The notes under the pieces are model-generated. The model did no database searches. It worked only from the letters and a program-made list of their open reading frames with translations, and was not told the origin of the DNA. A DNA stretch of 64,000 bases, taken from positions 151,724-215,723 of the forward strand of contig CAWDOJ010000003.1 of NCBI GenBank assembly GCA_963803825.1, in the 5' to 3' direction. Positions 5,689 through 56,071 of the stretch are shown piece by piece. The number at the start of each line of letters is the position of its first letter. Position 1 is the first letter of the stretch. The DNA comes from an uncultured Verrucomicrobiae bacterium (GTDB lineage: Bacteria; Verrucomicrobiota; Verrucomicrobiia; Chthoniobacterales; JAATET01). Made by a program: the position numbers and the translations under genes.

Positions 5689-5694
5689 TGACGG

Positions 5695-23108: not shown

Positions 23109-23115
23109 GAATTGT

Positions 23116-23310: not shown

Positions 23311-24384
23311 ATGGAACGATCATCGAGAGCGACCGGGGTGCAGATCGCGTTGGCGGTCATTGCGGTGATGCTTGTGCTGTGGTCGGCGAGTAAAATTGTG
23401 ACCATCATCTTGATCACCGTGTTGGCGGTGGTGCTCGCGTGTGGCCTGCATCCGGTGATGTCCGCCATCCAACGAAAAGGAGAAGCGCTGCTGGGTTGGC
23501 GGTGTCCGCGTTGGGCCGTGGCACTTTCCCTCGTGCTATCGATTACCCTGGCGATCGTCGGTCTCGTCTTGTTTCTCGGGGCCAGGTTGTGGACTGAAGG
23601 CGCGGAAGCGGCGGAGTCGCTCCCGCAGTATGCGGACACCCTCGACGCTCGTTTGGAGCAACTGCACCGCACGTTTCCGCAGATCCCGGCAAATCCGGAC
23701 ATCGCGTCGATGGCTCAGGATCAACTCGGGAACGTCGGGAGCTACCTGTGGGAGAGGTCGAAAGCGTTGCTGGGAGTCCTTGGAGTCGTGGGGGCAGGAG
23801 TGACCGTATTGGTCCTCACTTTTTACCTTCTCATCAGCGGCGAGAAGCTATTCGGCACCGCATTGTTACTGGTCGTTCCACGGCACCGGCAGCGAGTCGC
23901 GAAGGCTTCGGCCGAGGCCTCGGAGGTGATGGGGTATTGGCTACGAGGGCAAGCGATCCTCGTAACGGCGATGACGGTGACCATCGCCCTTGCGATGATG
24001 GCGCTGGGTCTCCCCCATCCGCTGCTGCTGGGTTTGATTGGCGGCGTGGGTGAGTTAATCCCGATGGTGGGTCCATTTCTGGCGGCCTGGATCGCGGTGC
24101 CGCTTGCGTTCCTGACCATGCCGTGGTGGGTGGGCGTCTGCACTGCGGTGTTTTTTGTGGTGCTCGCGCTAGTCGAAGGGAATTTCGTAGTTCCGAAGGT
24201 GATGCAGAAGAACGTGTCGCTGCCGCCTGCCGTGACGATCGTCGTCGTGTTGGCCGGAGCCAGTTTGTTCGGAGTGATTGGCGCGCTGCTCGCGGTGCCG
24301 ATCACCGCCGCGACGCGGGTCTATTTGAAGTGGTTTGTCATCCCGGCGATCGAAGGAGAGCGGCCACCGGCCGGGCAAGCGTGA
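23311..24384 (+). CDS. AI-2E family (PerM/UPF0118) transporter
   Basis: ORF 23272..24384 is polytopic, with LIGGVGELIPMVGPFLAAWIAVPLAF typical of the family. The start is 23272 or the ATG at 23311. Confidence 0.85.
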   Translation: MERSSRATGVQIALAVIAVMLVLWSASKIVTIILITVLAVVLACGLHPVMSAIQRKGEALLGWRCPRWAVALSLVLSITLAIVGLVLFLGARLWTEGAEAAESLPQYADTLDARLEQLHRTFPQIPANPDIASMAQDQLGNVGSYLWERSKALLGVLGVVGAGVTVLVLTFYLLISGEKLFGTALLLVVPRHRQRVAKASAEASEVMGYWLRGQAILVTAMTVTIALAMMALGLPHPLLLGLIGGVGELIPMVGPFLAAWIAVPLAFLTMPWWVGVCTAVFFVVLALVEGNFVVPKVMQKNVSLPPAVTIVVVLAGASLFGVIGALLAVPITAATRVYLKWFVIPAIEGERPPAGQA

Positions 24385-38978: not shown

Positions 38979-39857
38979 CTAAAGATACCGATCCACGATG
39001 ATTTGCAATCGCTCAATGGCTTCCTCGGACCAATGCTCGCGCGGAGTGACGATGGCGTCGCTCAGGGCGGAGTGGTCGGGCCAGTCGGGGGACTCCGGGA
39101 TGCGGGGGATCACGTGAGCGAGGACGTCGCGGGCGGTCTCGGCGTTGGCGTGGAGGTGAGCGGTGACGGATTCCACTGTCACGGCATCCTCAGAGACTCG
39201 CCAACAGTCGTAATCGGTGACCATGGCCATGCAGGCGTAGGCAATCTCGGCCTCCCGGGCGAGCTTGGCTTCGGGCAAGACGGTCATGCCGATGATGTCG
39301 AAGCCGAGCCGGCGGTTCGTCTCGGACTCGGCCCGGGTGGAAAAGGCGGGGCCATCCATTTGGATGTAGGTGCCGGCGGAATGGTATTTCTTGCGAAGCG
39401 ACGAGCAGGTCTGGCCGACCAATTGCCGCAGGTGGGGGCTAGTGGGTTCGGCGAGACTGACGTGGGCGACGATCCCGTTGCCGAAGAAAGTGTGATTCGC
39501 GCGCTGGCTGGATCGGTCGAAAAATTGGGACGGAAGGACGACATCGCGGGGTTCGAAGCGCTCCTGGAGGCTGCCGACAGCGGCGGCGCTGATGATCCAG
39601 CGGACGCCGAGCGTGCGGAGCGCGTAGATGTTGGCGCGGTGGTTGATCTCGTGCGGGGCGATGGTGTGGCCGCGTCCGTGGCGAGGGAGGAAGAAGACGG
39701 TGCGCCCGTGGAGGGTCCCGCCAATGATCAAGTCGGAAGGATTGCCGAAGGGCGTCTCCACTTCGTAGTGCTTGTCCTCGTGAAAGCCTTCGATCTCGTA
39801 AAGGCCGCTCCCACCGATGACAGCGATGGCAGGTTGGTCTGGGGTCGGGGTGATCAT
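38979..39857 (-). CDS. mtnP: S-methyl-5'-thioadenosine phosphorylase
   Basis: Start MITPTPDQPAIAVIGGSGLYE. Motifs FLPRHGRGHTIAPHEINHRANIYAL, VGSL and MTVLPEAKLAREAEIAYA. Confidence 0.9.
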   Translation of the reverse strand: MITPTPDQPAIAVIGGSGLYEIEGFHEDKHYEVETPFGNPSDLIIGGTLHGRTVFFLPRHGRGHTIAPHEINHRANIYALRTLGVRWIISAAAVGSLQERFEPRDVVLPSQFFDRSSQRANHTFFGNGIVAHVSLAEPTSPHLRQLVGQTCSSLRKKYHSAGTYIQMDGPAFSTRAESETNRRLGFDIIGMTVLPEAKLAREAEIAYACMAMVTDYDCWRVSEDAVTVESVTAHLHANAETARDVLAHVIPRIPESPDWPDHSALSDAIVTPREHWSEEAIERLQIIVDRYL

Positions 39858-39889
39858 CCCCCGATCATGCCTGACCGAGGTTGCTTTTT

Positions 39890-40759
39890 TCAAGCACCGC
39901 GAGCAACTCGACGAGAGCGGGAGAAGCTCGAGACGGAGCGGCGGACGAGGCCGCCGAGCGGACGCCACATCTCGGGTTCGTCGATGGGAATGGACACGAG
40001 GGCGCTGCCCCGGACCTCGTCACGGACGGTGATCTCGGGAACGATCGAGATCGCTTGCTCGATCTCGACCGCGCGTTTGACCGTCTCGATGTTGTCGAAC
40101 TCGAGGATGGGTTTGATTTTGACGTGCTGCTCGCGAAGACGTTTGTCGATCCCCTTGCGGGTGGGAAGGTCGGGTTCGAAGGCGACGAATTTGTGCCCGG
40201 CCAGATCTCGGAGCCGGACGGTGTCGCGGGTGGCCAGCGGGTGGGTCGGCGGGCAGATGAGGACGAGATTGTCCCGCCAGAACGTGAACGGGCGGAGGCC
40301 GGGGCGACGGGATGGGTAGGCGACAAGGCCGAGATCGCATTCGCCCGCTTCGAGATAATCGTAGACCTCGTTCGAACGGCAATAGCGCACCGTCACGTCG
40401 ACCTGCGGCTGCGACTTGCGGAAGGCGGCTAAGTGCGGGGGGAATTCGTGGAGGCCGATGCTAAGGACGGTCGCAACGCGGATCTCTCCGGCGACGACGT
40501 GTTGAATCGACTGGATGCGGTGCCCCAGATCTTCGTAAGCGTCGAGGATGTTGCGACTGGCGGCCAGGAAAGCGCGGCCCTCGTCGGTGAGGGCGAAATC
40601 GCGGTGGCCGCGGTCGATCAACCGGACATCGAATTTCTTCTCCATCGCGCGGACTTGTTGGCTCACGGCGCTCTGCGTGATGCCGTTGGCCTCGGCCGCC
40701 TTGGAGAAGCTGGCGGCTTCGACGAGATCGCGGAAGACCTTGAAGGATTCGATTTGCAT
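39890..40759 (-). CDS. LysR-family transcriptional regulator
   Basis: The HTH region reads MQIESFKVFRDLVEAASFSKAAEANGITQSAVSQQVRAMEKKF and is followed by a LysR substrate-binding fold. It is divergent from yggS. Confidence 0.85.
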   Translation of the reverse strand: MQIESFKVFRDLVEAASFSKAAEANGITQSAVSQQVRAMEKKFDVRLIDRGHRDFALTDEGRAFLAASRNILDAYEDLGHRIQSIQHVVAGEIRVATVLSIGLHEFPPHLAAFRKSQPQVDVTVRYCRSNEVYDYLEAGECDLGLVAYPSRRPGLRPFTFWRDNLVLICPPTHPLATRDTVRLRDLAGHKFVAFEPDLPTRKGIDKRLREQHVKIKPILEFDNIETVKRAVEIEQAISIVPEITVRDEVRGSALVSIPIDEPEMWRPLGGLVRRSVSSFSRSRRVARGA

Positions 40760-42226: not shown

Positions 42227-43138
42227 TCAGAATTCCCGCCAGACGGCGACCTTGAATCCGCCGCCGGCTCCGGTCGCTCGGCCGGCGATCTGCCAGTAGG
42301 GGCCGGCTTGGATGATCCAGTCGGTGATGGGTTCGACGAGCGCGGACGCGCCCACTTTGATCAGGTCGAAGTCGGTGGTGAGGAGGATGTTGTCGCCGAC
42401 GGATTGCGGCGTGTCGTTGCCGAGTCCGTGGATGCCGCTGGCTTCGAGGAAGTAAACGTCGAGCCAGTCGGTGAGTTCGATCCCGCCCGTGAAATACCAG
42501 CGAAGCTCGTCGGCGGGTTCGGCGGTCCGAAGCCGGTATCCGACGCCGACGTCGACGAAACCCCAGCGGCTGCCGAAGGGAAATGGGTGCCCGATGAAGT
42601 AGTCGAGCTCCACGTCGGTCTGGCCATTGCCGAGGGCCGGGGAGTCGTTCACGTCGTAGGGACCCGGGATCTTCACCATGAGCTGGAGGGCTTGGGGGAT
42701 TTTTTCCGAGAGCCGGTAGCGCAAGCCGATTTCCTGATCGGCGAGGCCGAAGTTTGTGTCGCGCCCGAATTCGTTCTCGAACGCTAGGCCATCGAGGAAG
42801 AAATTCCCGATGAGGGTCACGCCGTCGGTCAGCCCGTATTCCACGTAGAGGTTCCACTCGTTCTTCGTGAAGCGACCGTCGAAACCGAAGTCCTCGCGTT
42901 TCCAGCCGTCGCCGAATTGTTCGTCGGTCGTGTAGAAGTAATAGGCGAGGACGGCAAGTCCTTCGCCTTTCGGCTGGGTCCAGGCTCCGGCTTGGGAAGA
43001 TGCCGGGCTTGAAAGTAGCACCGAGACGGCGATCAACGACCGAATCCACCGACGGACGGAATTCCTCGTATCTCGGTGAAAAATGGGCGTTTGCCTTGCC
43101 ATGCGAGGGAGAAGAGTCATCATCCCGCCGGTTTGCAA
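42227..43138 (-). CDS. Outer-membrane beta-barrel protein (family not recognised)
   Basis: Intact ORF with signal peptide ...IAVSVLLSSPASSQA, alternating aromatic/hydrophilic strands and a C-terminal ...KVAVWREF. It is divergent from the 43.1-kb operon. Confidence 0.6.
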   Translation of the reverse strand: MQTGGMMTLLPRMARQTPIFHRDTRNSVRRWIRSLIAVSVLLSSPASSQAGAWTQPKGEGLAVLAYYFYTTDEQFGDGWKREDFGFDGRFTKNEWNLYVEYGLTDGVTLIGNFFLDGLAFENEFGRDTNFGLADQEIGLRYRLSEKIPQALQLMVKIPGPYDVNDSPALGNGQTDVELDYFIGHPFPFGSRWGFVDVGVGYRLRTAEPADELRWYFTGGIELTDWLDVYFLEASGIHGLGNDTPQSVGDNILLTTDFDLIKVGASALVEPITDWIIQAGPYWQIAGRATGAGGGFKVAVWREF

Positions 43139-44320
43139 GCACGGGCATTGTCGGTATTAGCTCAGTGTCGCGACACTGAGGATCACTTCGATCCGGTCGA
43201 GTCGTTGTGCCGGAGTTGTCTCTGCGACGGGCTGCCTTTGGAAGATATCGAATGGCTTGCGACCGAGGCGTCCCCGATCCGGCTGCAAACCAACGACGTT
43301 CTCTTCGACGATGACGACCGGATCGAGGCGCTGCACGTTGTCGTGCGGGGTGAATTGAGCCTCCTCGTCCGAGGCACCGCGGCGGGAGAATTCGCCGAAT
43401 GCGCGCGGCTCGACGCCGGTCAGTTCATCGGCGAAGGCGCGGTGATCGATTCGGAAGGCGATCGCACCCCGAAGGCGGTCCGGCGAGCGCGCATCGTCGC
43501 GAAGTGCGAGACGGTGGTGCTGCGAATTCCCGCCTCCGCTCTTCTGGCGCTGGTGGAGCGTCAGCCCCGGATCATGGTCCGGAATCTATTGAGCCATTCG
43601 GCGGAAAAAAATCGGCTCGCGTCCCGGGTGGTTCTCGAGGAGCGATTGGAGCGGGAGAGCGTCCAAATTTTTCAGGATCTGTCGCGTTGGTTGACGCGGG
43701 CGGTCGACGACGCCGCGACCGCGCTCCGGTTGAACGCGGAGCTTCTCCAAATCGAGAATTTTCCGGTGCGAATCGCCGCGACCGTGGACGATCTCGACGC
43801 CGCCGCCCGGGATCTGGCGACGACAATCGGCGCGCTCGGCCAGCTCGGCGGCGCGAATGCCGCGACGCCGACGCTCGAGCCGGTCCGCGTGCGGGATTGG
43901 TGGATCGAGCGTGAACCCGGCGTCCGGGCGCGACTTGCCGACCGTCGGATCGAGCTCGACGCCTACGTCGAAGACTGCGGACTCATGTCCTGCCCGGAGC
44001 TGCTCGGGGGCACCATCGTCGAACTGCTCGATGGCCTGGGACAATTACTGGGAAGGGATCGGGGGATCGAGCTGCGGGTGGGGAAGAGGTTTGGCGCCAT
44101 TGAATTTCGCTCGAGTCTGGCGACTCCGGGCCTCACGGAATACGCGGCCAAGCGGCTCTTCCGGCCCTTCGCGCTGGGCGAGGACGTAGCGCCCTTTCAG
44201 CTGTCGCTCGCGCGGCGCAACGCCCGGTTTCTGGGTGGTGACGCTACCGTCCAGCGCCGGGACGGCGACCGGCTCACGGTGCTTCTCAGCCTTCCAATCG
44301 CTCCCGCTCATGGCCGTTGA
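43076..44320 (+). CDS. Cyclic-nucleotide-binding domain protein with a degenerate histidine-kinase-like ATPase C-domain
   Basis: The CAP_ED pattern is LHVVVRGELSLLVRG...LDAGQFIGEGAVID...RRARIVAKCETVVLRIP. The C-terminus has an HATPase_c-like layout (IELRVGKRFGAIEFRSS...RLFRPFALGED...FQLSLARRNARFLGGDATVQRRDGDRLTVLLSLP), but the usual N, DxGxG and GxGLGL residues are replaced. The start is uncertain (43076-43205). Confidence 0.7.
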   Translation: MKNGRLPCHAREKSHHPAGLQARALSVLAQCRDTEDHFDPVESLCRSCLCDGLPLEDIEWLATEASPIRLQTNDVLFDDDDRIEALHVVVRGELSLLVRGTAAGEFAECARLDAGQFIGEGAVIDSEGDRTPKAVRRARIVAKCETVVLRIPASALLALVERQPRIMVRNLLSHSAEKNRLASRVVLEERLERESVQIFQDLSRWLTRAVDDAATALRLNAELLQIENFPVRIAATVDDLDAAARDLATTIGALGQLGGANAATPTLEPVRVRDWWIEREPGVRARLADRRIELDAYVEDCGLMSCPELLGGTIVELLDGLGQLLGRDRGIELRVGKRFGAIEFRSSLATPGLTEYAAKRLFRPFALGEDVAPFQLSLARRNARFLGGDATVQRRDGDRLTVLLSLPIAPAHGR

Positions 44321-44810
44321 GTTTACTCCCGCCGCCGCTGGGTGCCGGATTCTGATCGCCGAGAGCCACGAGCTCACGGCGCGCGCCATCGGTCGGACCC
44401 TCGAGTCTGCGGGTTTTCGGGTGGATCGGATCGCGGATGAAAGCGGTCTCGCGGATCTGAACGATTTCGACGCCTGTCTGATCGCGGGCCGACTCGGCAA
44501 CGAACCGGGCGCGACGGTGATCCGAGAGCTTCGGCAAAAAGGCGTCACCGCCCCAATCGTCGCGCTGGTGGGTTGGTCGGACTGGGCTGGCCGCGACGAG
44601 CTGATGAATTCCGGCGCCGATTCCGTCCTGATGAAGCCCTGCGGTGCTGCGGAGATGATCGGATTGCTCCAGCGGCTGCTCGAGCGCGCCCACCCGGAAG
44701 TCACGCGGGCGGAGGGATCCGGGTCGGTCCGTCCCGGCATCGCGATGCCCGTCTTGGTCACCGCTCTCATCGGCCTTGGGATCTCGCTCACGCTCTGGCT
44801 TCTCCAATGA
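44310..44810 (+). CDS. Receiver-domain protein lacking the phospho-acceptor Asp, with a C-terminal TM anchor (pseudo-receiver)
   Basis: The REC fold reads RILIAES...FDACLIAGRLGNEPG...IVALVGWS...VLMKP. By manual alignment to CheY, the DD pocket becomes AE, D57 becomes A, and K109 is kept. It ends in the TM helix PVLVTALIGLGISLTLWLL and overlaps the upstream stop by 11 nt. Confidence 0.75.
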   Translation: MAVEFTPAAAGCRILIAESHELTARAIGRTLESAGFRVDRIADESGLADLNDFDACLIAGRLGNEPGATVIRELRQKGVTAPIVALVGWSDWAGRDELMNSGADSVLMKPCGAAEMIGLLQRLLERAHPEVTRAEGSGSVRPGIAMPVLVTALIGLGISLTLWLLQ

Positions 44811-46763
44811 AAATCGTTCAGCTCCTTCTCACCGCCACCCTCGTTCATTCCGCGCTGGCGGTGCCGGTCGAGGTCGAGCGAAATCTGGCCGAAATGGGAT
44901 TCGTCCAGCCCGTGCGCCTCGCGGGCACGGAGGTCGAACGGGATTTCTTCTTTCCGCTGGCGAGTCGCGATTTTCTCGCGGAAGACTCCTCGTTTCGGGT
45001 GGTCGTCGAGCCGTCGCCGTTGCTGGATCCGAGTTCCGTGGTGACGATCCTGGTCAACGAGCGACCCGTCGCGACGCAAGTCGTCGGAGAGGGCGCGATG
45101 CCCCCGATCGCGGTGCCAATTCCGACGGAGGTCAAAGCGGACGACCCGACCAGCCAGGTGCTCAAACTCACCGTCCGGACCGCGCTCGCGCCGCGCGACG
45201 GCAATCCCGCTTCCGACGAAATCCTGCGCGCCACGGCTTGGGTCGACGTGCTGCCGACGACGACGTTCGTCTGCGCGGTCGAACCCACCGATCCCGATTG
45301 GCTGGCGGCCAGTCGTTTGCCGACGACGCTGGGGCCGCAGATCACGGTCCGTCTGCCGGACGGTGGTGAGTCGTTTGCGGCGGGGCTGGCGTTGCGCGCG
45401 GTGACGTGGGCGGCTTACGCCCAGCCGTTTGGGCGGGTGTCGGTGGCGAGCGATTTGCTGAAGGTCACCGATGAGATCGTGATCGACCCGCGGGCGACCG
45501 AGAAACCGGGAATCGCGGTGGCGGCTGGTCCGACGGGCCGGATCATCACGCTGTCCGCCGGCGATGACGAACAAGCCGACGCGGTGTGGAGGATGCTGCG
45601 CGATCTGGGGCGGTCGGGCCTGCCCGGCGAGCGTCTCGAGGCGTCGGCGGCTGCGGACGACGGGCGAGCTGCGGTGAGTCCGACGACGTTGCGGGGACTC
45701 GATCCGCGGATCGGCGAATTAAATCGCGGGCCCGGCGAGACCGAGCGGCGCTTCGCGTTCGTGCCCGCGAAGCTGAGCGGATCTTCGGGGCAACTGGAAC
45801 TCGCTCTCGCCGGGCGGGTCTCCGATCTGACCGGGGTGGGGCCGATCGTGGGGGCGGTTTTTCTGAACGATCGGATGGTTCATTCGGCGCGGCTCGACCC
45901 GGAGGCGCGGACGTTCCAATGGGCGGTGCCGTTTGCCGACCGAGCACCTGAAGGGGGAGAGCGAGGTGCGCGTCGCGATGTTTCCGACGGATCGAACCAA
46001 GCCCTACTTCTGGCAGCTCGAGGAGACCGCCTCCATCTCGGCGGTCGAGGGTGGCGGAGGCGTGGTCTTCGAGCCGTCGAGCCTGATCGAAGCGGCGCAG
46101 GGATCGTTCGTCGCTGGACCGTATGACGTGGTGTGGGGCGGTGGCGGAGGTTCGCTCGAAGTCGCCGCGTCGGTGGTGACGTGGCTGCAGCGGGTGAATC
46201 GCGCGACGCTCCTCGATCCGGTCGTAACCGGGAAGCCGGAGGGTCTCCGGCCCACGGTCTTGATTGCAACCGTGCCGGAGGGGATGAGCGACGTGGTGGC
46301 GACGTTGCCGATCGCGCCGGGAGCGGGATCGGTGAGCGTGCGTGACGGTGGGGGGCGCGAAGTCCTCCGCGTGGCCAGCGGGGAGAGTCTCGGTTACTGG
46401 CAGCTCGGATTTTCCGGCGGAGGGAAACCCGTCATCGTCGCCGGATCGTCTGGAACCAACGGGCCGGAAGCCTTGGCGGCGGTGTCGGGGCAGATCGCCG
46501 GAGCGCGGTGGATCGAGGCGGGTGACGTGGTGATGGGGGATGGTCGTGGCCCGGTCCTGACGGTGAGCACCCGGGAACGAAAGCTGGCGGAAGTGCCCGC
46601 GTCGGTCGCTGCGGTGGGGAGTCTCGAGGTGGTGGCGGCTGGCCCGGGCTCGGTGACGGGGGATTGGCGACGTTGGCGCTGGTGGTCGATCGGCGCGCTC
46701 TGGTTGGCCCTCTCGGGCACGGTTTTCTTCGTCTACAAACAAGGGCGTCAGCACGCCCGTTAG
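44807..46763 (+). CDS. BcsB-like periplasmic synthase subunit with a C-terminal TM anchor; single frame break near 45932
   Basis: ATGA overlap with the upstream stop and signal peptide MKIVQLLLTATLVHSALA. It has the pattern LAEMGFVQPVRLAGTEVERDFFFPL...SSFRVVVEPSPLLDPSSVVTILVNERPV, which I associate with BcsB. ORF 45933..46763 continues the protein (QWAVP|LPTEHLKGESEVRV) after an extra T in a TTT run. The terminal helix is WWSIGALWLALSGTVFFVY. Confidence 0.55.
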
Positions 46764-46772: not shown

Positions 46773-48632
46773 ATGCGCGTCGTCAATCACCTCCACGAGC
46801 AGGGTCTCCTCGGGATCGCGGGACGTCGGCGGGTCGAGCAGGCGGCGGCGAGCTGGGGTGTCGAGGCGGATCCGTTGCTGCGGACCTTCGCGTTGGTGAG
46901 TCCCGCGACCTACCTGCGGGCTTACGAGGACGTTCACGAGGTGGAGCGGCACGCGGCGGAAACGCTCCGGCTGGACGGAGATCGATCTGCGGCCATCCCG
47001 TGGGAGCTGTGGCGCGATCATCAGGCGTTGCCGGTCGTCACGTCGGCGGGTGCGGCCACCACCGCAGCCGTCGATCCCGCCCGGTTGCCGCCCTCGCTCC
47101 GGCCCGCGACGGCGCGACCCTGCCTGCTGCTCGAGGAGGAGTGGGTCGAATTGGTCACGCGCTTTCGCGGCGGGGATTTCCTGGACGAAGCCGTGCACGG
47201 TCTGTCGCGGGCGCAGCCGGGCGCGTCGGCCCGGCGGACCTTCACGCCGCCGCAGCTGGGATTCATCTGGGCGGTTGGGTCGGCGATTCTCGGCGGACTT
47301 CTCGCCGCGCCCGTCGCGACGATCATCGTCGTGAATTGCGTCCTCAACCTCTTCTACACGCTCTGCGTGGGGTTTAAAACGCTGCTCGTCTTCGTGGGTT
47401 CGACGCGGACGGTGTCGCACAAGGTCTCGCCGCTGGAACTCGACGCGATCGATCCCGCGCGGCTCCCGATCTATTCGATTCTCGTCCCGGTTTTCCGCGA
47501 GCCGCTGGTGATCTCCGGCCTCGTCCGGCAGCTCTCGTCGCTCAACTACCCGCTCGCCAAGCTGGACGTGAACATTCTGCTCGAGGAGGGCGACGACGAA
47601 ACGATCAACGCCGTGCGGGCGATCAATCCGCCGCCGAATTTTCACACCATCATCGTCCCGCACGCCACGCCCAAGACGAAGCCGAAGGCGTGCAACTTCG
47701 GGATGTTTTTCGTTCGCGGGAAATACACCGCTATCTACGACGCGGAGGATTTCCCCGAGCCCGATCAATTGGAAAAAGTCGTCGTTTCCTTCGGCAAACT
47801 CGCCGACCACGTCGTCTGCATCCAGGGCTGTCTCAACTATTTCAATTGGCGCGAGAACCTGCTCACGCGCCTCTTCACGCTCGAATACACGAGTTGGTTC
47901 GACTACAATCTTCCCGGCATGGAGGCGCTGCGGATCCCGATCCCGCTCGGGGGCACCAGCAATCATTTCAAGACCGACCGACTGCGGGAACTCGGCGCGT
48001 GGGACCCCTACAACGTGACCGAGGACGCCGACCTGGGCGTCCGCGCCAGCGCCCGCGGCTACACGGTGGCGACGATCGATTCGACGACGTTCGAGGAGGC
48101 GAATTGCCACGCCGGCAATTGGATCCGGCAGCGATCGCGTTGGATCAAGGGTTACATGCAGACCTTCCTCGTCCACACGCGGCACCCGTCCCGGATCATC
48201 GGGCGCATCGGGTGGCGGGGGTTCGTCGGGTTCGTTCTCTTCATCGGCGGGACTCCGTTCACGTTTCTGGTGAATCCGATCCTCTGGCTCATCGTGATCG
48301 CGTGGGCGCTCACGCGGTCGCCGCTCATCGACGCGATTTTCCCGCCCTGGCTGCTCACGCTCTCGATCACGAATCTCGTGATCGGAAACCTGATGGCGAT
48401 CTACGCCTGCGTGCTGGCCGTCTTCCGGCGGGGGCGGCACGCGCTGAGTCCCTACGCGCTGCTCAATCCGCTCTACTGGATGATGCACGCCATCGCGGCC
48501 TACAAGGGACTCTGGCAGCTGATCGTGAATCCCTTCTACTGGGAAAAAACCGACCACGGACTGTCGTCCATGACCGGTGGACTCCCCGCCGCCGCCGTCG
48601 GCACCGCCAATCCGAACACCGCCGATGCGTAG
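46773..48632 (+). CDS. Processive family-2 glycosyltransferase (BcsA/PgaC-like synthase) with a GspE_N/MshEN-like N-terminal domain and no PilZ domain
   Basis: Intact 619-aa ORF. The first ~100 residues follow a T2SSE_N-like pattern (...EQGLLGIAG...LVSPATYLRAYEDV...IPWELWRDHQALPVV). Two TM helices precede the GT2 core (ILVPVFRE, PKTKPKACNFG, YDAEDFPEPDQL, TEDADLGVR, QRSRWIKG which is the QxxRW motif), and about four TM helices follow. The protein ends about 30 aa after the last helix. Confidence 0.85.
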   Translation: MRVVNHLHEQGLLGIAGRRRVEQAAASWGVEADPLLRTFALVSPATYLRAYEDVHEVERHAAETLRLDGDRSAAIPWELWRDHQALPVVTSAGAATTAAVDPARLPPSLRPATARPCLLLEEEWVELVTRFRGGDFLDEAVHGLSRAQPGASARRTFTPPQLGFIWAVGSAILGGLLAAPVATIIVVNCVLNLFYTLCVGFKTLLVFVGSTRTVSHKVSPLELDAIDPARLPIYSILVPVFREPLVISGLVRQLSSLNYPLAKLDVNILLEEGDDETINAVRAINPPPNFHTIIVPHATPKTKPKACNFGMFFVRGKYTAIYDAEDFPEPDQLEKVVVSFGKLADHVVCIQGCLNYFNWRENLLTRLFTLEYTSWFDYNLPGMEALRIPIPLGGTSNHFKTDRLRELGAWDPYNVTEDADLGVRASARGYTVATIDSTTFEEANCHAGNWIRQRSRWIKGYMQTFLVHTRHPSRIIGRIGWRGFVGFVLFIGGTPFTFLVNPILWLIVIAWALTRSPLIDAIFPPWLLTLSITNLVIGNLMAIYACVLAVFRRGRHALSPYALLNPLYWMMHAIAAYKGLWQLIVNPFYWEKTDHGLSSMTGGLPAAAVGTANPNTADA

Positions 48633-50207
48633 GCTGTCCCTGCCCCTCGTCGCGCTCGTGGTCGGCGGGCTGACCGCCGCGCTGCTCGCGACCGGGCAGG
48701 CGCTCGCGGCGTGGTGCGGCTTCCTGACGACCGAGGGCGCGCTCATTTCCGCGCGAGCGATCCTCGCCGCGCGGGGCGATCTTTTGACGATCGCGAGCCT
48801 GGGCATTCCGCAGCCGCCGCTGCCCTTCCTCGCCGCGATCCCGTTCGCCGCCTGCCGCTTGCCGAATCCGGCGCTGTGGGTGTCCGCGCTGGCGGGTGGG
48901 CTGCTCGTCGGGTGGCTGCTCTATTCGTATCGGGGGATCGTTGTCCGGCACCCGGCTCTGGCGTTGCTGCTCCTCCTGGTCCCGGCGCTGCCCGGGGTGT
49001 TTCACAGTTCGGTGACCGGGACGGCCACCGTGACGGGTTTCCTGCTGCTGGTCGTCGCGATTCAGCTCGCCGCGCGGTTCGCCATCGAGCAGCAGAACTT
49101 GCGGGAGGCTCGCCGGGCGGGGCGGCTCTCCGCGTGGGTCGATCCGGATCGCGAGCAGGCGCACGCCATTCGCTTCCTGTGGGCGGCCGCGCTCGCGCTG
49201 GGGCTCGCGTCGCTCGCCACGCCCGGACTCGGGGTCGCGCTCCCGCTTTTCCTCCTCGCGACGCCGCTCCTCCTGCCGCCCGGCGAACGGCGGAACGTCG
49301 GCAAGATCATCACCATCGCGCTGTTGCTGTTTCTGCCGATGGTCACCGTGCAAGCGCTCGTTCAGGGACTGGGCTGGGCCTTCGGCGGGGGCTGGCCAGG
49401 CTTGCTGCCGCCTTCGTCCGGGTCGCTCGTTGGGTGGGTCGATGGCGGGACGGGGGAGGGTCGGGGTGGTCGCTTCGGTCGCCGCTCGCCGCCGCCGCGC
49501 ACGTCTCGACGGGATTGCTGATCGCGGGTCCCGTGCTGATCTACGTCGTGATCCGGCTGCGCAACGCGGCGGTCGCGCTGCTGTGCGCGATCCCGTTCGT
49601 GGTGGAGTTTTTATTCGTGTGGGACGGCGGCAGCGCGCTCGCGCGGGACGGGCGGTCGCTGGCGACGGTGCTGGGGATTTCGTTGGTTCTGCTCGGGGCT
49701 CAGCTCGGCCGCTTTCGGCAGCGGGAATTCACCGCGTTGACCGCCGCGACGATCCTCGTCGCCGTCGTCGGGTGGATCCAACTCGCGGATTCGCCGCGGC
49801 CCGAGGAACGGGTATTCGCCCGGCTGGCGCGCGGCGAAGACGTCACCACTTTCGCCGATGAACGTCGGCTGGTGGAGCGCATCGGCGCGGACCCGACGGC
49901 GCGGACGGTCCTGCTCGACGATGCGGCGGGGTTTGCTCTCATTGCGCTGCTCGGCGACTGCTCGCGGTTCGTGCTGCCGCACGAGGCGCGGTTTCGGTTT
50001 TCGCTGGAAAATCCGCAGCGCTGCGCGTCCCACGCGCTCCTCCGGCGGTCGGGGATCGGGGGGAGGCCGGAACTGGTCTCCAGCGCTTGGATCTCGCTTG
50101 GTGCTGACAAACGGGCGTTCTTCCGCCCAGAATTCGAGGCGGGCCGGTGGCGGTTGCTTGCCAACTCGCCGCCGGTGACCGACACCGTCGCTGCCGCCAA
50201 TCGATGA
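48625..50207 (+). CDS. Polytopic membrane protein with a soluble C-terminal domain (unknown family); frame break near 49.40-49.46 kb
   Basis: The ATG at 48625 overlaps the GT2 stop. ORF 48577..49521 (multi-TM) and the tail of ORF 48711..50207 (more TM helices, then ...ERVFARLARGEDVTTFADERRLVERIG...) read as one protein after a -1 shift. Confidence 0.6.
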
Positions 50208-51262
50208 CCGCGTTCTTTGCCATGATTTCCCTCGCCGCATTTTCGGTTGGCCAAATCCCGCCCGTCGGGCCGGATTTTCAACCCCGCTTTCAGCGGGGCG
50301 TCGTCTTCGCGCACAACCACAGCGTCGAGCGCGGCTACGGCGGCGAAATGGCGGCGCGGTCGCTCGAGGAACTCAAAACGCTCGGTGTCGACAGCGTCAC
50401 GATCATTCCGCTCGGCTACAGCTTCAACGTCGAGGATCCGCGGATCTTTGGATACACGGGCGAGGATCTCACGATGACCCCCGACAGCATCCGGCGGATG
50501 ATCCGGTCGGCGCACGCGGCGGGTCTCGCCGTGACGCTGGCCCCGCAGATCTGGATCGGGATGTATGGCGCGCGTGGGGATTGGCGGGGCGACGTGCGGA
50601 TGAAGAACGGCGCCGATTGGGAGAAATGGTTCGCGGGTTACACCGGGTTCATTCTGTTCTGGGCGAGGATGGCGCAGGAGGAAGGGGTGGAACTCTTCAG
50701 CGTCGGGAGCGAGATGCGGACCGCCACGGAACTCCGCCCGGCGGACTGGCGGCGGGTCATTCTCGACGTGCGGGGCGTCTACAAGGGTCCCTGCACCTAC
50801 TCGGCGAATTGGGCGGACGAGATCGACTTCATCGAGTTCTGGGACCTGCTCGAATACATCGGCGTTTCGTTTTATTTTCCGATCGGAGGCGGGACGCTCG
50901 AGGAGCGTCTCGTGGAAGCGGCCAAGGCGCGGGACCACGTGGCGGAGGTGGCGACTCGTTTCAACAAGCCGGTGCTTTTTCTGGAAGCCGGGTTCCGCAG
51001 CATCCCGGGCGCGGGTCTCAAGCCGCACTCGTGGCGCGACGACCTGCCGCCGCCGGTCGATCTCGAAGAGCAGCGGGTGAGTTTTGAAGTTCTGTTCCGA
51101 ACTTTTTGGGATCAGGGATGGTTCTACGGCTTCTACTGGTGGCATTGGTTCTCAGACCTCGATTACCACCCGCAGCCTCCGACCGACTTCCAATTCCGCG
51201 ACAAACCCGCTGCGGACGTCCTGCGGAAATTTTACACCCGACCCAACCCACGCCAGCCATGA
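50204..51262 (+). CDS. TIM-barrel glycoside hydrolase (clan GH-A-like)
   Basis: ATGA overlap with the upstream stop and signal-like MTAFFAMISLAAFSVG. Candidate catalytic acid/base is ELFSVGSEM and candidate nucleophile is VLFLEAGFRS. The C-terminus is aromatic-rich. Confidence 0.7.
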   Translation: MTAFFAMISLAAFSVGQIPPVGPDFQPRFQRGVVFAHNHSVERGYGGEMAARSLEELKTLGVDSVTIIPLGYSFNVEDPRIFGYTGEDLTMTPDSIRRMIRSAHAAGLAVTLAPQIWIGMYGARGDWRGDVRMKNGADWEKWFAGYTGFILFWARMAQEEGVELFSVGSEMRTATELRPADWRRVILDVRGVYKGPCTYSANWADEIDFIEFWDLLEYIGVSFYFPIGGGTLEERLVEAAKARDHVAEVATRFNKPVLFLEAGFRSIPGAGLKPHSWRDDLPPPVDLEEQRVSFEVLFRTFWDQGWFYGFYWWHWFSDLDYHPQPPTDFQFRDKPAADVLRKFYTRPNPRQP

Positions 51263-54200
51263 GAACGTTCCTCGCAATCCTAGCCCTCGCCGCGACGGCG
51301 AGCGCCCAGACGACGGCGAATTTTCTCGGGGGACCGGGTGATTTCAGCGATCCGCTAAATTGGGACACGAATCCGGTCTATCCCAACAACGGCCAACCGG
51401 GTGCCGCAGACACCTACGCCGCGACCATCGCCGGCGGCGACGTGACGCTCGACGTCGACGTGACGCTCGACTCGCTGAACTTCGTCGGGGCATCCCTGCT
51501 CTCGAACGGGACCAGAACGATCACGGCGGCAACGACGCTCGGCAATGGGGCGGTCTTCGCGGGAGGCGTCACGCGACTGAGTGGTTCGGCGGCGCTTTCG
51601 GGTGGGGCGAGCGCGGCGTTTGTGAACGTCGTGGGTGGCGCGGAAGTGGCCAATCTCGGTTCGTTCACGCACACGCAGGGTGGGGCGACCGACACGGGGA
51701 TCATTCTCAATTCGGACGGACTCGGCGGCGGATCGACCTTCCGCAATGCGTCGACGGGGACGTTCACGGCGGCCACGACGACGGCGGGGGCGAGCGTGGG
51801 CTTCGGCCTGGCGGACGCGGGTAATCAGTTTGTGAACGCCGGCGTGTTCGTGAAATCCGGCACGGCGGATTACGACGTGAACGTGGCGTTCGTGAATTCG
51901 GGGACCTCGCAGGTGCAGGCCGGAACGCTCAAGCTGAACGCGGGCGACGGTGGCTCGACGACGGGTTCGCAGACGGTCGCCGGGACGCTGGCGCTGAGTG
52001 GCGGGTTCGACTTTGCCTCGGGGTCCGGGGTGGCGGGCGGGGGGAGGCTCACGAACAACAGCGGGACGACGACCTTCGCGGCGGGCAGCGATCTCTCGGT
52101 CTCGACGCTGGAACTGGTCAGCGGCAACGTCGTCGTCGAGAGCGGCGCGACATTTGGCTCATCGAATCTGGCGGTAAACGGCGGGACGCTCACGAGCAAT
52201 GTCGACCACACCTTCTCGAACTCGACGTTCACCAACGGCGGGTCGGTGCTCGGCTCGGGCGACGTGACGTTCGCGACCGCGGTGACGTTCGACGGGTCGA
52301 CCTACACGTTCGGCGGGACGGGGACGAAGACGTTCGCGACGGACGTGAACTTTTCGACCACGTCGACGGATCAATACTTCAACGTGAACGGCGGCACGGA
52401 GGTCGTGAACTCCGCGCAATTCACGCAGGCCCGGCTCGGCAGCGGCGAAAGCGCGATCGTGCTGAACGCGGACGAGGCCGGCGGCGGGTCGGTTTTCCGG
52501 AACACGGGGACGTTCATCGCGAACGCGAGCGGCGGCGTGGCGAGCATCGGGAGCGCGGCACCCGATGCCGGAAATCAATTTTTGAACGAGGGGACTTTTC
52601 AGAAATTCGGATCGAACGATTATTCAGCCAACGTTGCGTTCGTGAACTCCGGCCAGCTCGAGTTGCTTCAGGGGACGATGAATTTGACCGCCGGCGACGG
52701 CGGTGCGACGACCGGAGCGGCGTCGATCTCGGGTGGCGCGGTGTTGGGATTGAGTGGTGGACACACGTTTGCTGCGGATTCGAGCGTGGCTGGCGGAGGG
52801 GCACTGCGGGTGAACGGGGGCGCGGTGACGTTCGCCTCCGGGTCGACGCTTTTGTCGGGCGGATTGGAACTCGTGAGCGGGACGACGACGTTCGATTCCG
52901 GGAGCTTCATTGGGAGCGGGACCGCGTTGGCGGTCAAGGGCGGCACGCTCGTGGCCGATATCGCGCAGACGTTCACCGGCACGACCTTCGCAAACGGCGG
53001 GACGGTCGCCGGGTCGGGCGCGGTCGAATTCGCCGGAACCACGGTATTCGACGGGGCGAGTTACACGTTTGGCGGGACGGGCGGGAAGACGTTCAACGGC
53101 AATACGGCGATCTCGGCCGGAGCGACGGAACAATTTTTCAACGTGAACGGCGGGACGACCGTGACAAACCTCGGGACGTTCACGCAGACGAAGACGGGCG
53201 TGGGCGCAAGCGTGATCGTGCTGAACGCCGACAACGCCGGGGGCGTCTCGCAATTCGTGAACGGGCCGGTGGAAACTTCACGGCGAACGTCCTCAACGGC
53301 GAAGCGAGCGTCGGTTTTGCCACGGCGACGGCGGGGAACGTTTTCATCAACAATGGGACGTTCACTAAGTCCGGATCGGGAATCTACGCGGCGAACGTGG
53401 CGTTTCGAAACAACGCCGACGTCTCCGTGCAGCAGGGAACGTTGGATCTCAACGCGGGTGACGGCGGGGCGACGGGCGGGACTTATGGTCTGGGCAATGG
53501 CACGACGCTCGGGCTCAGCGGATCGTTCGTGTTCGGAAGCGGCTCCTCGGTCGAGGGGGCGGGCACGTTGCTGGTGAAAAGCGGCGTCACGACGTTTGGT
53601 TCCGGGAGTTCGCTCGGCAACCAGACGCTGCGCCTATTGAGCGGCACGACGATCCTGGCCGCCGGAAGCACGCTGGGGTCGGTCGCCCTGCAGGCGGCCG
53701 GCGGGACCCTGCAACTCGACATCGCGCACACGTTCCAGGGCGCGGCGTTTTCCAATGGCGGCATCGTCACCGGGAGCGGGGCGGCGACCTTCGCGGGGAC
53801 GACGACGTTCGACGGGAGCAGCCCGACGCTCGGCGGATTCGGGGCGAAGGTGTTCACGGGTTCCGCGACGCTGGAGTCGGGTGACACGGATCAATTTTTC
53901 AACGTCAACGGCGGGACCAAGGTGCAGAGCAACGGGACGTTCACCCAGCGGCGGCTCGGGCCGGGCGACAGCCAGATCGTGCTCAACGCGGATGGCTCGG
54001 GCGGCTCGTCACGCTTCACGAATGGGGGCACGTTCACCGCAGACGTGCGGGTGGGATCGGCGGGCATCGGGTTCGGCGATTCCGTCGGAGACATCACGTT
54101 CGACAACTCGGGCCAATTCATCAAAACGGGGAGCGGCGATTACAACGCGAACGTGATCTTCCGTAACGGGGGGAATGTGGACGTGCAGCAGGGCCTCCTC

Positions 54201-56071
54201 AATCTCAACGCGGGGAGTGGTAGCGCGGTCGTCTTCGGGGACTTCGCTGTCGCGAGCGGAGCGACGTTCGGGCTGGCCGGGACGAATTCGTTCGCGTCGA
54301 CGGTCGGGTTCACCGGGGGCGGGTCGGTGGTCGTGCTTGGCGGGACGACGAACTTCGCGTCGGGGAGTTCGTTCGCGTCGGGGGTGCTCGAGTTGCGGGG
54401 CGGGACGACGACCTTCGACGCGGGCAGCGCGATCGGCGCGACGGCGTTGCGGATCGCGGGCGGGACGCTCGAGTCCAATATCGCGAAGACCTTCACGGGC
54501 ACGGCATTCACGAGCGGCGGCTTGGTCACCGGGTCGGGGGCCACGACCTTCGCCGGGACGACTTCGTTCGACGGGGCGAGCTACACGTTCGGCGGAAGCG
54601 GGACAAAAACGTTCAGCGGCACGACCGTCATCGCGGCAGGCGCGACGGACCAGTTCATCAACGTCAACGGCGGGGCGGAGGTCGTGAACACCGGGAGTTT
54701 CACCCAAAGGCGCGCTGGAGCCGGGCTGAGTAGTTTGGTGCTGAATTCCGACGGGGCGGGGGGATCGACTTTTCGCAACGCGAGCTTCTTCACCGCCGAC
54801 GTGTCGTCCGGCCTGGCGACGGTCGGGTTCGCGAGCACGAATGTCGGTAGCCGGTTCGTCAACGAAGGCATCCTGAACAAGACGGGCGCGGGCCTGTATC
54901 AAGTGAACGTCGTGCTGGAAAATACCGGGACGGCCATCGTCGGAGCCGGGACGCTGGCGGCGACGGCGGGGATCACGGGGAACGGGACGGTCGACATCAA
55001 CGCGAACGCCGTCCTCGATCTCTCGGAAAACATTCACACCAGCGCCGTCGGTCAGCTCAAACACAGTGGGGCCAATCTCGCGCTCGGCTCGAACGACGTT
55101 GTCGTATCGAGCGACTACACGAACGAAAATTTCGGTGTTGGGAACGGCTTCAATCGCCGTTCGAACGTCACCGGCACCGGACAAATTCTGGCGGGTGGCG
55201 ACGCGACGCTCGCGGCGACGGGCGACGTGGCGGGCGGCGGGCGGGCGGCGTGGCGGGCGGCGTGATCGCGTTCGGCACGGTCCACGTCGGCGAGGTGATC
55301 TCAAAATCCTACACGCTGGCAAATCCTGGGACGAGTGGCCCCGCGATCCGCGGCGCGCTGCAGACGTCCGTGAACGGCGGCAACCTCACGGACTCGCGGC
55401 TGACCGGGAGCGGGGTGACGGCGGGGAATCTCGGCCCGGTCGCGACGGGCGGGTCGAGCGGGTCGCTGGGCGTGACGTTGACCGCGTCGACCGCCGGGGC
55501 GCTCACGGGGCAGTCGATTCACGTCGCGACAAATTTCGACAACGTGGCTCCCATCGATCTCGCGATCACCGGGGCGGTGAACTTTTTCGCCGAGCCCGTG
55601 CTGACGAAGGTGTCCGGGGACGCGGTTTTCACGATGGATTCGGCGACGGGCTACACGATCGACTTCGGCACGATCGACCTGGCGGACAGCGTACGCTCGA
55701 TCAACCTGGCGCTGGAGAATCTCCTGAGGGACCCCGTTTTCCAGGACGCGCTTGGCGGCACCTTCGACCTGTCGGGACTCACGGCGTTCGACGCGACGGG
55801 ATTCGCCGCTTTCGTCGGGCTCGCGAGCGGCGGCGAGCGGACGGGCTACGGCGTGGAGATCGACCCCGGCTTGCTCGGCAACGGCGTCTACGTGGAGTCG
55901 CTCTTCTACGATCCGACGAGCGCGAACGGATCGGGAACGTCCAGTCTTAGCCAGATCGAGCTGGCGTTCCGCGCGACGGTCGTGCCGGAGCCGTCGACGG
56001 TTGCGCTGCTCGTGATCGCGCTCAGCTTGTTCGCCTGGACCGCGCGCCGCCGAGTTTCCACCCGCCAATGA
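51259..56071 (+). CDS. Giant (~1600 aa) secreted PEP-CTERM protein with five ~253-aa Gly/Thr/Asn-rich tandem repeats; two frame breaks (near 53271 and 55240)
   Basis: ATGA overlap with the upstream stop and signal peptide MRTFLAILALAATASA. Repeat starts F(V/F/I)NV(V/N)GG lie near 51617, 52378, 53135, 53893 and 54655. ORFs 51106..53577, 53397..55265 and 55250..56071 are collinear (frames 1, 0, 2). The C-terminus VPEPSTVALLVIALSLFAWTARRR is a PEP-CTERM sorting signal. Confidence 0.8.

Follow-up and report, generated by a model that had tools for sequence, protein, structure and literature searches.

A motif-degenerate MshEN-fold domain on an XagB-like polysaccharide synthase of a Chthoniobacterales-like verrucomicrobium

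Gating of polysaccharide synthases by c-di-GMP, through a PilZ domain in BcsA or an MshEN domain in NfrB, is central to biofilm control. MshEN domains that bind c-di-GMP carry a tandem 24-residue motif, RLGxx(L/V/I)(L/V/I)xxG(L/V/I)(L/V/I)xxxxLxxxLxxQ, the two copies being separated by a 5-residue spacer (Wang et al. 2016, PMC5013675). Supplementary Table 4 of that study already lists the architecture "MshEN - Glyco_trans_2_3", and NfrB, the reverse fusion, was shown by experiment to be a c-di-GMP-activated synthase (PMC8669469). Binding was lost in XpsE, which carries G11V, R38G, Q61V and other changes (PMC5013675). The GSPII-A domain of PilF has only six deviations and showed no binding by ITC or NMR, nor was binding regained when the consensus was restored (PMC12002112). 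Kato et al. 2015 (PMC4643136) described a bcsB–xagB–xagC–xagD cluster in stalk-forming Fe-oxidisers; their paper contains no discussion of an MshEN domain or of cNMP/REC genes.

The MshEN–GT2, or "XagB-like", family is very common but unstudied, and occurs in two forms in which the c-di-GMP motif is either intact or decayed; a literature search on GH113 plus BcsB and on xagB found no functional study of the subfamily. We analysed one member encoded in a 64-kb stretch of DNA (the window). [quoted passage not shown]

The operon and its synthase

The synthase gene lies in an exopolysaccharide operon of a Chthoniobacterales-like verrucomicrobium, together with genes for a BcsB-like protein, a membrane protein and a GH113 enzyme. 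The gene order given below is conserved across the Chthoniobacterales-like clade, at 55-89% identity.

43076..44320, + strand: cNMP-binding protein, 414 aa (PF00027, E 2.6e-10, residues 69-162)
44310..44810, + strand: single-domain receiver (REC; PF00072, E 3.5e-11) with a hydrophobic, membrane-anchor-like C-terminal stretch
44807..46763, + strand: BcsB-like periplasmic partner in two frames (break at 45928/45933), with a hydrophobic, membrane-anchor-like C-terminal stretch
46773-48632, + strand: intact GT2 synthase, 619 aa, GC3 0.85
48625..50207, + strand: conserved hydrophobic protein of ~500 aa, probably a membrane protein and possibly XagC-like (frame break at 49419/49452)
50204..51262, + strand: GH113 glycoside hydrolase (PF22612, E 4.8e-56), conserved at the related loci L001-L004

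The anatomy described in the earlier note, with a cNMP module upstream and a BcsB-like neighbour, holds. The cNMP-binding protein also matched cNMP-binding and CRP structures in the PDB. Its C-terminal half is tentatively a divergent, HATPase_c-like or kinase-like domain, judged from sequence comparisons. HATPase_c was matched weakly in orthologues (E 3e-4 and 0.22) and was not found by Pfam in the window copy, BLASTP gave no match between the protein and a Mucilaginibacter kinase, and an iterated custom HMM converged on kinases, a result that may reflect profile drift. L001 has a 694-aa minus-strand gene call that is apparently spurious, with the orthologue of the cNMP-binding protein lying on the plus strand at that place. 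The receiver lacks the phospho-acceptor Asp in both the window and L001, with Ala at this position in the window copy, when aligned with orthologues and with CheY. With no acceptor Asp in the receiver and a kinase-like half that is barely detectable, a classical phosphorelay is doubtful.

The BcsB-like gene reached 20.4 bits with PF03170, just below the gathering score of 21 and over the N-terminal 90 residues only. Stronger precomputed matches to PF03170 were present in the orthologues at L002, L007 and L009, and L001 carries an intact orthologue of 654 aa (8027-9991). The putative membrane protein had no Pfam match; its orthologue in L001 is intact (527 aa), and a gene of 440-541 aa follows the synthase at all ten loci inspected. 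Frame breaks were found in four genes neighbouring the synthase, that of the BcsB-like gene having been placed by tblastn. The operon may thus be non-functional in this organism, or the assembly may be prone to errors.

The enzymatic part of the synthase has the following features, in which the transmembrane nature of the helices is presumed from where they lie within the synthase fold.

47247..47402, + strand: two long helices, presumed N-terminal transmembrane (residues 159-210; AF2 helices 159-178 and 180-210)
47460..48182, + strand: GT2 catalytic domain (residues ~230-470; PF13632 and PF13641)
47739-47750, + strand: DAED motif (residues 323-326)
48018-48026, + strand: TED motif (residues 416-418)
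48129-48143, + strand: QRSRW motif (residues 453-457)
48186..48632, + strand: long helices, presumed transmembrane (residues 472-585), followed by a short tail (586-619), from the AF2 model

The synthase is a membrane-embedded, processive-type GT2 enzyme of the widespread XagB-like family. Both Pfam models matched the catalytic domain at E ~1e-17, and every residue of the DxD, TED and QxxRW motifs was invariant in 56 sequences. When the full-length AF2 model (pTM 0.89) was compared with the PDB by Foldseek, hyaluronan synthase (HAS; 8smp, E 7e-13) and BcsA (4p00, E 9e-12) were both matched, as were chitin synthases. The best NCBIfam match was NF011305 (PRK14716), a GT2 "glycosyl transferase family protein" model that we take to be of the NfrB type (phage N4 adsorption protein B), at 38.6 bits where the cut-off is 409. 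The scores with the BcsA/CelA models were also far below their cut-offs (TIGR03030, 37.2 vs 699 bits; NF008558, 25.7 vs 992 bits). The description of the enzyme as BcsA-like is thus right for the processive GT2 fold but goes no further, since HAS matches equally well and the CelA/BcsA cut-offs were missed. The absence of PilZ was borne out, as no such domain was found by Pfam at E<=10 and the last long helix (565-585) is followed by only 34 residues. This tail has a short helix (606-610) and low confidence at its end (pLDDT <50 for residues 605-619), and it carries a conserved motif, FYWEKTxHG, in which W590, K592, T593, H595 and G596 were invariant among the 56 sequences.

About 8,000 homologues were found, and contigs from a set with one genome per species contained at least 560 relatives. 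Most of the 120 homologues listed combine PF05157 with GT2. The synthase is therefore an ordinary member of a common and already catalogued type; the idea of a novel, domain-swapped arrangement did not survive, both the architecture (PMC5013675) and its reverse (PMC8669469) being on record. Three homologues (P0014, P0045 and P0064) are named "glycosyltransferase XagB" by JGI and NCBI, and these names, together with the gene order, make the window cluster a candidate for the xag type.

Fold and identity of the N-terminal domain

Residues 1 to ~120 of the synthase are a genuine MshEN (GSPII) homologue, made up of a four-helix bundle and an alpha/beta subdomain. The features of this region are as follows.

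46773..46940, + strand: MshEN_N-like four-helix bundle (residues 1-56; AF2 helices 2-9, 15-28, 32-38 and 44-55)
46776-46847, + strand: degenerate motif I (residues 2-25)
46863-46934, + strand: degenerate motif II (residues 31-54)
46941..47132, + strand: MshEN_C/T2SSE_N1-like alpha/beta subdomain (residues 57-120; AF2 strands 85-89 and 95-99)
47133..47213, + strand: long connecting helix between the N-domain and the membrane part (residues 121-147, AF2)

The domain modelled alone had a pLDDT of 91.8, and the bundle was predicted with a pLDDT of 92-97. All 20 of the best Foldseek matches in the PDB were MshEN/GSPII domains, whereas the next unrelated structure had an E of 2.1. MshE of Vibrio cholerae (VcMshE, 5htl) was matched at E 9.5e-5 (TM 0.69/0.74, rmsd 3.5 Å, 137 columns). 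The best match was the N-domain of X. citri PilB in complex with PilZ (7lkn, E 1.2e-5), and 9g1w and 2d28 were also recovered. The alpha/beta subdomain matched 5htl, 8pdk, 7lkn and 2d28. Profile comparison agreed with the structural search: by hhalign, the N-domains of the clade matched those of homologues with canonical motifs at 98.8% probability (E 6e-17, 153 columns), and the clade profile (A2) matched the N-terminus of M. xanthus PilB. A search of the PDB with the full-length sequence returned weak GT2 matches only and nothing for the N-domain, for which the clade profile and the fold search were needed. The connecting helix carries the conserved EEEWV…FLDEAVNGL; within the clade E121, W124, G143 and L144 never vary, and L144 is invariant in the wider family as well.

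The domain assignment of the earlier note was therefore confirmed by fold, profile and homologues, although the match in the HMM check that it had suggested stayed below threshold. PF05157 scored 15.7-18.3 bits on the window protein (E 0.002-0.015), below the gathering score of 23.1, and the sub-threshold match spans residues 63-133, outside residues 1-17. The gathering score was passed by the close relatives P0008 (23.2) and P0004 (25.9), and more distant relatives scored 36.8-57.3 bits. These scores and the hhalign result indicate that the window protein is missed because it has diverged, rather than because the domain is absent. Treating the lack of a PF05157 match as a refutation was uninformative in any case, as both binding motifs precede the region that PF05157.20 covers. 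P0061, for instance, has its motifs at 2-25 and 31-54 and its Pfam match at 55-143, and P0112 reaches 49.5 bits although its motifs are degenerate. Since the model lacks the binding site, PF05157 annotation cannot separate intact from decayed forms. Both 24-residue motifs, and not the Pfam match, should be scored before a protein is named a c-di-GMP receptor.

Motif decay and the role of the domain

The register of the two motifs and the 5-residue spacer are kept in the window protein, and its partial motif lies in register with homologues that start M-RLGEILLQEGIVDTATLERALAIQ and have the canonical RLG…Q. Of the 14 core positions that contact c-di-GMP, three are kept in the window protein, 0-4 in its clade and 10-14 in canonical relatives. 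In motifs I and II, respectively, RLG has become RVV and EAD, Q24 has become A and V, and L17/L21 have become R/E and Y/Y. Neither the strict nor the relaxed regular expression for the Wang motif matched the window protein or any clade member. The partial motif that had been noticed earlier is real (R, L6, G10, L11 and L12 were confirmed, with V at position 2 in addition), but six of 11 is not above chance: matches of this kind were found at 0.3% of positions across 20 further proteins of the window, and an unrelated gene of the window, for a phosphorylase, reaches 8/11.

With 11 of 14 core positions lost, and with domains that have changed less failing to bind, canonical gating by c-di-GMP is unlikely. 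On the motif sequences, c-di-GMP binding in the manner of MshE or NfrB has most likely been lost. We think it probable that the XagB-like synthase carries a degenerate domain of the MshEN fold that is not a canonical c-di-GMP receptor. After decay of the site, the domain would have been kept as an adaptor, probably structural or regulatory, with the conserved helix coupling it to the synthase's membrane part. Control may then have passed to two co-transcribed gene products, the cNMP-binding, histidine-kinase-like protein and the receiver with its apparent membrane anchor, which possibly dock on the degenerate N-domain. Docking and rewiring, taken as a step by itself, is a doubtful to at best tentative proposal.

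The gene neighbourhoods bear on this step. Among loci with degenerate motifs, the BcsB-like gene is immediately preceded by a sensor-kinase, REC or cNMP gene in nearly all of those from Bacteroidota and in 4/5 from Verrucomicrobia. None of the nine canonical-motif loci whose upstream sequence extends to 3 kb or more has such a gene at that position. The exceptions are the cyanobacterial degenerate loci and L009, which have no adjacent regulator, and two canonical loci have two-component genes nearby. Counted by lineage, a regulator is present in four of seven degenerate and none of eight canonical lineages, or in about two of five degenerate lineages if the Bacteroidota are taken as one, in a sample that is small and confounded by phylogeny. 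The fallback offered in the earlier note, that regulation goes through the upstream cNMP module, is thus favoured by the comparative data, though weakly. The broader form of the idea, which we regard as unlikely, is that MshEN–GT2 exopolysaccharide synthases recruited an in-operon sensor as their c-di-GMP site decayed, and that the degenerate MshEN domain serves as the docking surface for this sensor. The sensor would be the cNMP-binding, kinase-like protein with its apparently membrane-anchored (pseudo)receiver in Verrucomicrobia and a histidine kinase in Bacteroidota. If true, the link between motif decay and a neighbouring sensor would be a neat case of regulatory rewiring, in which gating of the synthase has moved from c-di-GMP to a cyclic-mononucleotide or phosphorelay input.

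The domain might instead be a structural remnant, acting for example in oligomerisation or stability, while the operon is regulated at transcription or by neighbours that act elsewhere. Degenerate MshEN–GT2 proteins with no adjacent regulator do exist, at L009 and in cyanobacteria, and the missing acceptor Asp of the window receiver fits this explanation. Nevertheless, the N-domain and connecting helix are well conserved, AF2 gives the domain a confident position with respect to the enzyme, and the tight, conserved order with cNMP and REC genes suggests functional coupling. We consider a mere remnant rather unlikely.

Much less probable is that the domain still gates the enzyme through c-di-GMP, replacing the PilZ of BcsA much as the MshEN domain of NfrB activates its glycosyltransferase (PMC8669469). 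The fold is fully retained, a conserved helix would couple it to the glycosyltransferase, homologues with canonical motifs in the same register are plausible c-di-GMP receptors, and motif I keeps Arg1, Gly10 and hydrophobic residues at positions 6, 11 and 12. The lost positions, however, include both Gly3, both Gln24 and all four L17/L21, and it is the backbone around Gly3 and the next residue that supplies the hydrogen bonds to guanine. XpsE and PilF GSPII-A, both less changed, did not bind when tested. The retained Arg is R, Q, D, E, A or N within the clade and so is not under selection. [quoted passage not shown] The failure of the consensus to restore binding in PilF GSPII-A shows that the sequence rules are imperfect, and a surprise in the reverse direction is conceivable.

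We give least credence to a decayed pocket re-tuned to another small ligand (for example a different cyclic mono- or dinucleotide, or a sugar nucleotide) that would leave the domain a direct sensor: conservation of the domain among relatives of 54-89% identity points to purifying selection, and the former motif region has clade-specific residues (W28, invariant, and R37, at least 90% within "PLLRT"), but folding or a protein interface could account for these just as well, W occupies the same spacer position in the canonical homologues P0054 and P0105, no MshEN domain with another ligand is described in the papers examined, and MshEN excludes c-di-AMP through the same backbone contacts that are lost here.

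Comparison with known systems

The synthase and its degenerate N-domain can be set beside several known systems. The catalogued MshEN–Glyco_trans_2_3 proteins, such as Rsph17029_0522 of Rhodobacter sphaeroides, have the same order, with MshEN at the N-terminus and the membrane GT2 behind it, a likeness taken from their description. Homologues from Truepera, Synergistaceae and Thermorudis are 45-55% identical to the window synthase over the glycosyltransferase part, with the N-domain in register. Canonical MshEN–GT2 relatives differ in keeping 10 or more core positions where the window protein keeps three and, at the loci inspected, in having no cNMP and REC genes. E. coli NfrB is likewise a processive GT2 with DxD, TED and QxxRW fused to MshEN, yet its order (GT2, TM, C-terminal MshEN) is the reverse, its motif is fully conserved with binding proven (PMC8669469), and its partners are NfrA/YbcH rather than BcsB-like and GH113 proteins. 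The bcsB–xagB–xagC–xagD cluster of Kato et al. 2015 (PMC4643136) is likened to the window cluster by gene order alone: in both, a BcsB-like gene precedes an XagB-like glycosyltransferase gene, and two more conserved genes come after it.

The BcsA–BcsB system shares with the window operon a membrane-integrated GT2 fold, a putative BcsB-like partner with a probable C-terminal anchor and a hydrolase in the operon. The window synthase differs in lacking PilZ, and its hydrolase is GH113 and not GH8, the family of BcsZ. With this hydrolase, and with HAS matching the structure just as well, the polymer is not necessarily cellulose. A β-mannan-like product is predicted, though loosely, on the basis of GH113 and of a ManC gene adjacent to the Synergistaceae locus.

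Xanthomonas XpsE-N, X. citri PilB-N and Thermus PilF GSPII-A have the same fold and decayed motifs and are the best or near-best structural matches to the N-domain; they sit on secretion or pilus ATPases, whereas the window domain sits on a glycosyltransferase. The PilB domain of X. citri reportedly does not itself bind c-di-GMP. It docks PilZ–FimX, so that a domain of this kind can act as a protein-docking module, and the docking of PilZ on the degenerate PilB N-domain of Xanthomonas is comparable to the docking that we tentatively suggest for the N-domain of the window synthase.

The synthase and its family

The region described in the earlier note comprises the first 126 codons of an ORF (46773-48632, + strand) encoding a 619-aa synthase; its GC3 of 0.85 is a strong bias and fits a real gene in a window of ~63% GC. 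Both PF13632 and PF13641 matched residues 234-512 (E ~1e-17), which clearly identifies a GT2 enzyme, and DAED (323-326), TED (416-418) and QRSRW (453-457) were invariant in a 56-sequence alignment. As claimed earlier, the PilZ domain is absent from the synthase, with no Pfam match even at E ≤ 10. NCBIfam scores were far under the cut-offs for CelA/BcsA, PgaC and the PRK14716 GT2 model, which we take to be NfrB-type. Since the full synthase model matched membrane-integrated processive synthases in general (hyaluronan synthase, E 7e-13; BcsA, E 9e-12; also chitin synthases), the description "BcsA-like" holds in the broad sense only. The conserved FYWEKTxHG directly after the last long helix (residues 590-596, window 48540-48560), in which W590, K592, T593, H595 and G596 were invariant in the 56 sequences, is presumably akin to motifs such as WGTR and FxVTxK in the gating loops of other synthases.

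A protein search with the window protein returned 7,989 homologues. Among the matches listed, those below ~55% identity were mostly PF05157+GT2 proteins, and several sources name such homologues "glycosyltransferase XagB". Screening a single genome for each species gave at least 560 relatives, distributed among Bacteroidota, Cyanobacteria, Synergistota, Deinococcota, Aquificota, Desulfobacterota and Chthoniobacterales. The closest named relatives are Chthoniobacterales MAGs (protein P0003, 81%; loci L011 and L012, 60-62%), which assigns the window to Verrucomicrobiota. Fusion of MshEN to glycosyltransferases was reported by Wang et al., whose Suppl. Table 4 lists both "MshEN - Glyco_trans_2_3" (Rsph17029_0522) and "Glyco_trans_2_3 - MshEN" (NfrB) (PMC5013675), and NfrB has since been demonstrated to be a c-di-GMP-activated EPS synthase (PMC8669469). 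The proposed "domain swap" was thus already catalogued; the window protein belongs, as a further member, to a family that is known and very common, and its architecture is not new.

Cyanobacterial members (P0028-P0060 from Thermostichus/Synechococcus, 764 aa, and those of loci L016, L019 and L044) carry an extra N-terminal extension of ~150 residues, to which the N-domain section of the family HMM matches a second time, and therefore have a duplicated MshEN-like domain. Both copies have degenerate motifs, and these synthase genes have no sensor genes beside them.

An MshEN-type domain with decayed motifs

The HMM check suggested earlier gave a PF05157 match ("MshEN", formerly T2SSE_N), but at 15.7-18.3 bits, under the gathering score of 23.1 bits, and over residues 63-133, not at the extreme N-terminus. 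Relatives P0008 and P0004 narrowly passed the threshold, and more distant homologues scored 37-57 bits. In the full-length AF2 model, based on the 56-sequence alignment (mean pLDDT 89.5, pTM 0.89), residues 1-120 reached 94-97 and formed four helices (2-9, 15-28, 32-38, 44-55) and a small alpha/beta unit, followed by a long helix (121-147) leading to a long helix pair (159-210). A separate model of residues 1-150 had a pLDDT of 91.8. When the N-domain model was compared with the PDB by Foldseek, the first 20 matches were all MshEN/GSPII domains, among them X. citri PilB-N (7lkn, E 1.2e-5), V. cholerae MshE with c-di-GMP (5htl; TM 0.69/0.74, rmsd 3.5 Å, 137 columns), Thermus PilF GSPII-B and -A, and XpsE-N; the next match had E 2.1. 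A profile of N-domains from the close Chthoniobacterales-like clade found the M. xanthus PilB N-terminus among PDB sequences (E 0.0026), and hhalign aligned these N-domains with those of homologues carrying canonical motifs (probability 98.8%, E 6e-17, 153 columns). The proposed MshEN-type domain is thus borne out by agreement of predicted structure, fold search and profile comparisons, and these lines of support indicate that the sub-threshold PF05157 score reflects divergence.

Some homologous synthases (~55% identity over the GT part) start with M-RLGEILLQEGIVDTATLERALAIQ, which at residue 2 strictly matches the motif of Wang et al., and homologue P0054 has a relaxed form of each motif (residues 2 and 31) and the 5-residue spacer between them. 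In full-length MAFFT and hhalign alignments, M-RVVNHLHEQGLLGIAGRRRVEQAA and EADPLLRTFALVSPATYLRAYEDV of the window protein occupy the same registers, so that the residue-by-residue match described earlier is correct and homologous. Taken alone, a 6/11 partial match is no evidence: it turned up at 0.3% of all positions across 20 further window proteins. The motif by itself is not diagnostic, because an unrelated PNP_UDP_1 phosphorylase gene (38979-40019) contains a chance 8/11 match to the 24-residue motif at ~39311 on the - strand (RLGFDIIGMTVLPEAKLAREAEIA).

We scored 14 core positions (R1, L2, G3, G10, L17, L21 and Q24 in each of two motifs).

Core positions kept
Window protein: 3/14
26 nearest relatives of the window protein: 0-4/14
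Canonical homologues: 10-14/14

Gly3, whose backbone amide and that of the following residue hydrogen-bond guanine, and Gln24, which touches ribose and phosphate (PMC5013675), are gone from both motifs; L17/L21 are substituted at 4/4 positions, and the retained Arg varies in close relatives (R, Q, D, E, A, N). By alignment, the motif copies are badly decayed. Wang et al. explained the loss of binding in XpsE by comparable substitutions, G11V, R38G and Q61V among them (PMC5013675); PilF GSPII-A has just six deviations and showed no binding by ITC or NMR (PMC12002112), and single motif mutations lower NfrB function (PMC8669469). [quoted passage not shown] Absence of a PF05157 hit, offered as a refutation, cannot decide binding, because the PF05157.20 match of homologue P0061 (55-143) begins after its motifs (2-25 and 31-54) and P0112, whose motifs are degenerate, reaches 49.5 bits all the same; Wang et al. 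had already noted this for the 2016 Pfam model (PMC5013675).

The operon and its surroundings

Genes of the operon
43076-44320, +, cNMP-binding protein (PF00027, E 2.6e-10)
44310-44810, +, REC protein with an apparent C-terminal membrane anchor (PF00072, E 3.5e-11)
44807-46763, +, BcsB-like protein (PF03170, 20.4 bits against a gathering score of 21)
46773-48632, +, synthase (GT2)
48625-50207, +, ~500-aa hydrophobic protein (no Pfam match)
50204-51262, +, GH113 hydrolase (PF22612, E 5e-56)

This six-gene order is repeated in related loci L001 (89% identity), L002 (66%) and L004 (55%). The operon hydrolase belongs to GH113, which we take to be a family of β-mannanases; that of cellulose operons is GH8. 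Instead of cellulose, the product may be a mannan-like polymer. In a Synergistaceae locus (L006), a ManC-type GDP-mannose pyrophosphorylase gene (3791-5194) lies just upstream of the BcsB-like gene. A bcsB–xagB–xagC–xagD cluster is known from Fe-oxidisers (PMC4643136).

Four successive operon genes each showed one reading-frame change relative to intact L001 orthologues; the synthase is intact.

Frame changes
45928-45933, BcsB-like gene
49419-49452, ~527-aa membrane protein
53268-53277, 1184-aa repetitive protein
55226-55265, 415-aa protein with a tail PEP-CTERM-like in appearance

A helicase-like gene (~20247-22703, -) is apparently split over frames too. These changes point to assembly indel errors or gene decay. 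Positions 10000-24000, with a sustained positive GC skew (0.19-0.31), few long clean ORFs and minus-strand translations rich in Pro/Arg/Ser, may be a further run of genes with broken frames. In L001, a public gene call at 5447-7531 (-; 694 aa, without Pfam match) is probably spurious; the plus strand there encodes the orthologue of the window cNMP-binding protein.

Sensor genes upstream of degenerate-motif synthases

The window and 90 related loci were scored for the motif and searched for REC, kinase and cNMP genes; Pfam gene tables were made for ten of the loci. Nine canonical-motif loci, from Truepera, Synergistaceae, Thermorudis, Aquificota, Sporomusaceae, HR37 and a deltaproteobacterium, had upstream sequence of 3 kb or longer. 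In none of the nine did a sensor gene immediately precede the BcsB-like gene or synthase; in two, two-component genes occurred elsewhere nearby. Among degenerate-motif loci, a histidine kinase lay directly upstream in essentially all those of Sphingobacteriaceae and Chitinophagaceae, REC and kinase genes in Fibrisoma, and cNMP and REC genes in 4/5 from Verrucomicrobia; the cyanobacterial loci and L009 had no sensor gene in this position. By lineage, an upstream sensor accompanied roughly 4/7 degenerate versus 0/8 canonical motifs, a difference that weakens when Bacteroidota count as one lineage. This association of motif decay with an upstream sensor is suggestive, but it is confounded by phylogeny.

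The REC protein ends in a hydrophobic, membrane-anchor-like stretch in 4/4 clade orthologues. With the acceptor position set by CheY Asp57, the acceptor Asp is replaced by Ala in the window and L001 (LIAGRL and LIAARL) and kept in L002 and L004; the REC of the window/L001 subclade is a predicted pseudo-receiver. The C-terminal half of the window cNMP protein had no Pfam match, and HATPase_c matches were weak and confined to its orthologues. A classical phosphorelay at this locus is doubtful, because the acceptor is Ala and the kinase-like half is barely detectable. The sensor genes of degenerate loci weakly favour the earlier fallback, regulation through the upstream module.

The observation in the earlier note is confirmed, and its interpretation holds only in part. 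The MshEN domain of the window protein is a decayed copy that most likely does not sense c-di-GMP. Any coupling of REC or cNMP proteins to the synthase would be by protein contact. A weakly supported possibility is that motif decay goes with capture of a neighbouring sensor and that the N-domain has been turned into its docking site. In the PilB-N/PilZ/FimX complex of X. citri, a degenerate MshEN-type domain reportedly serves as such a docking module.
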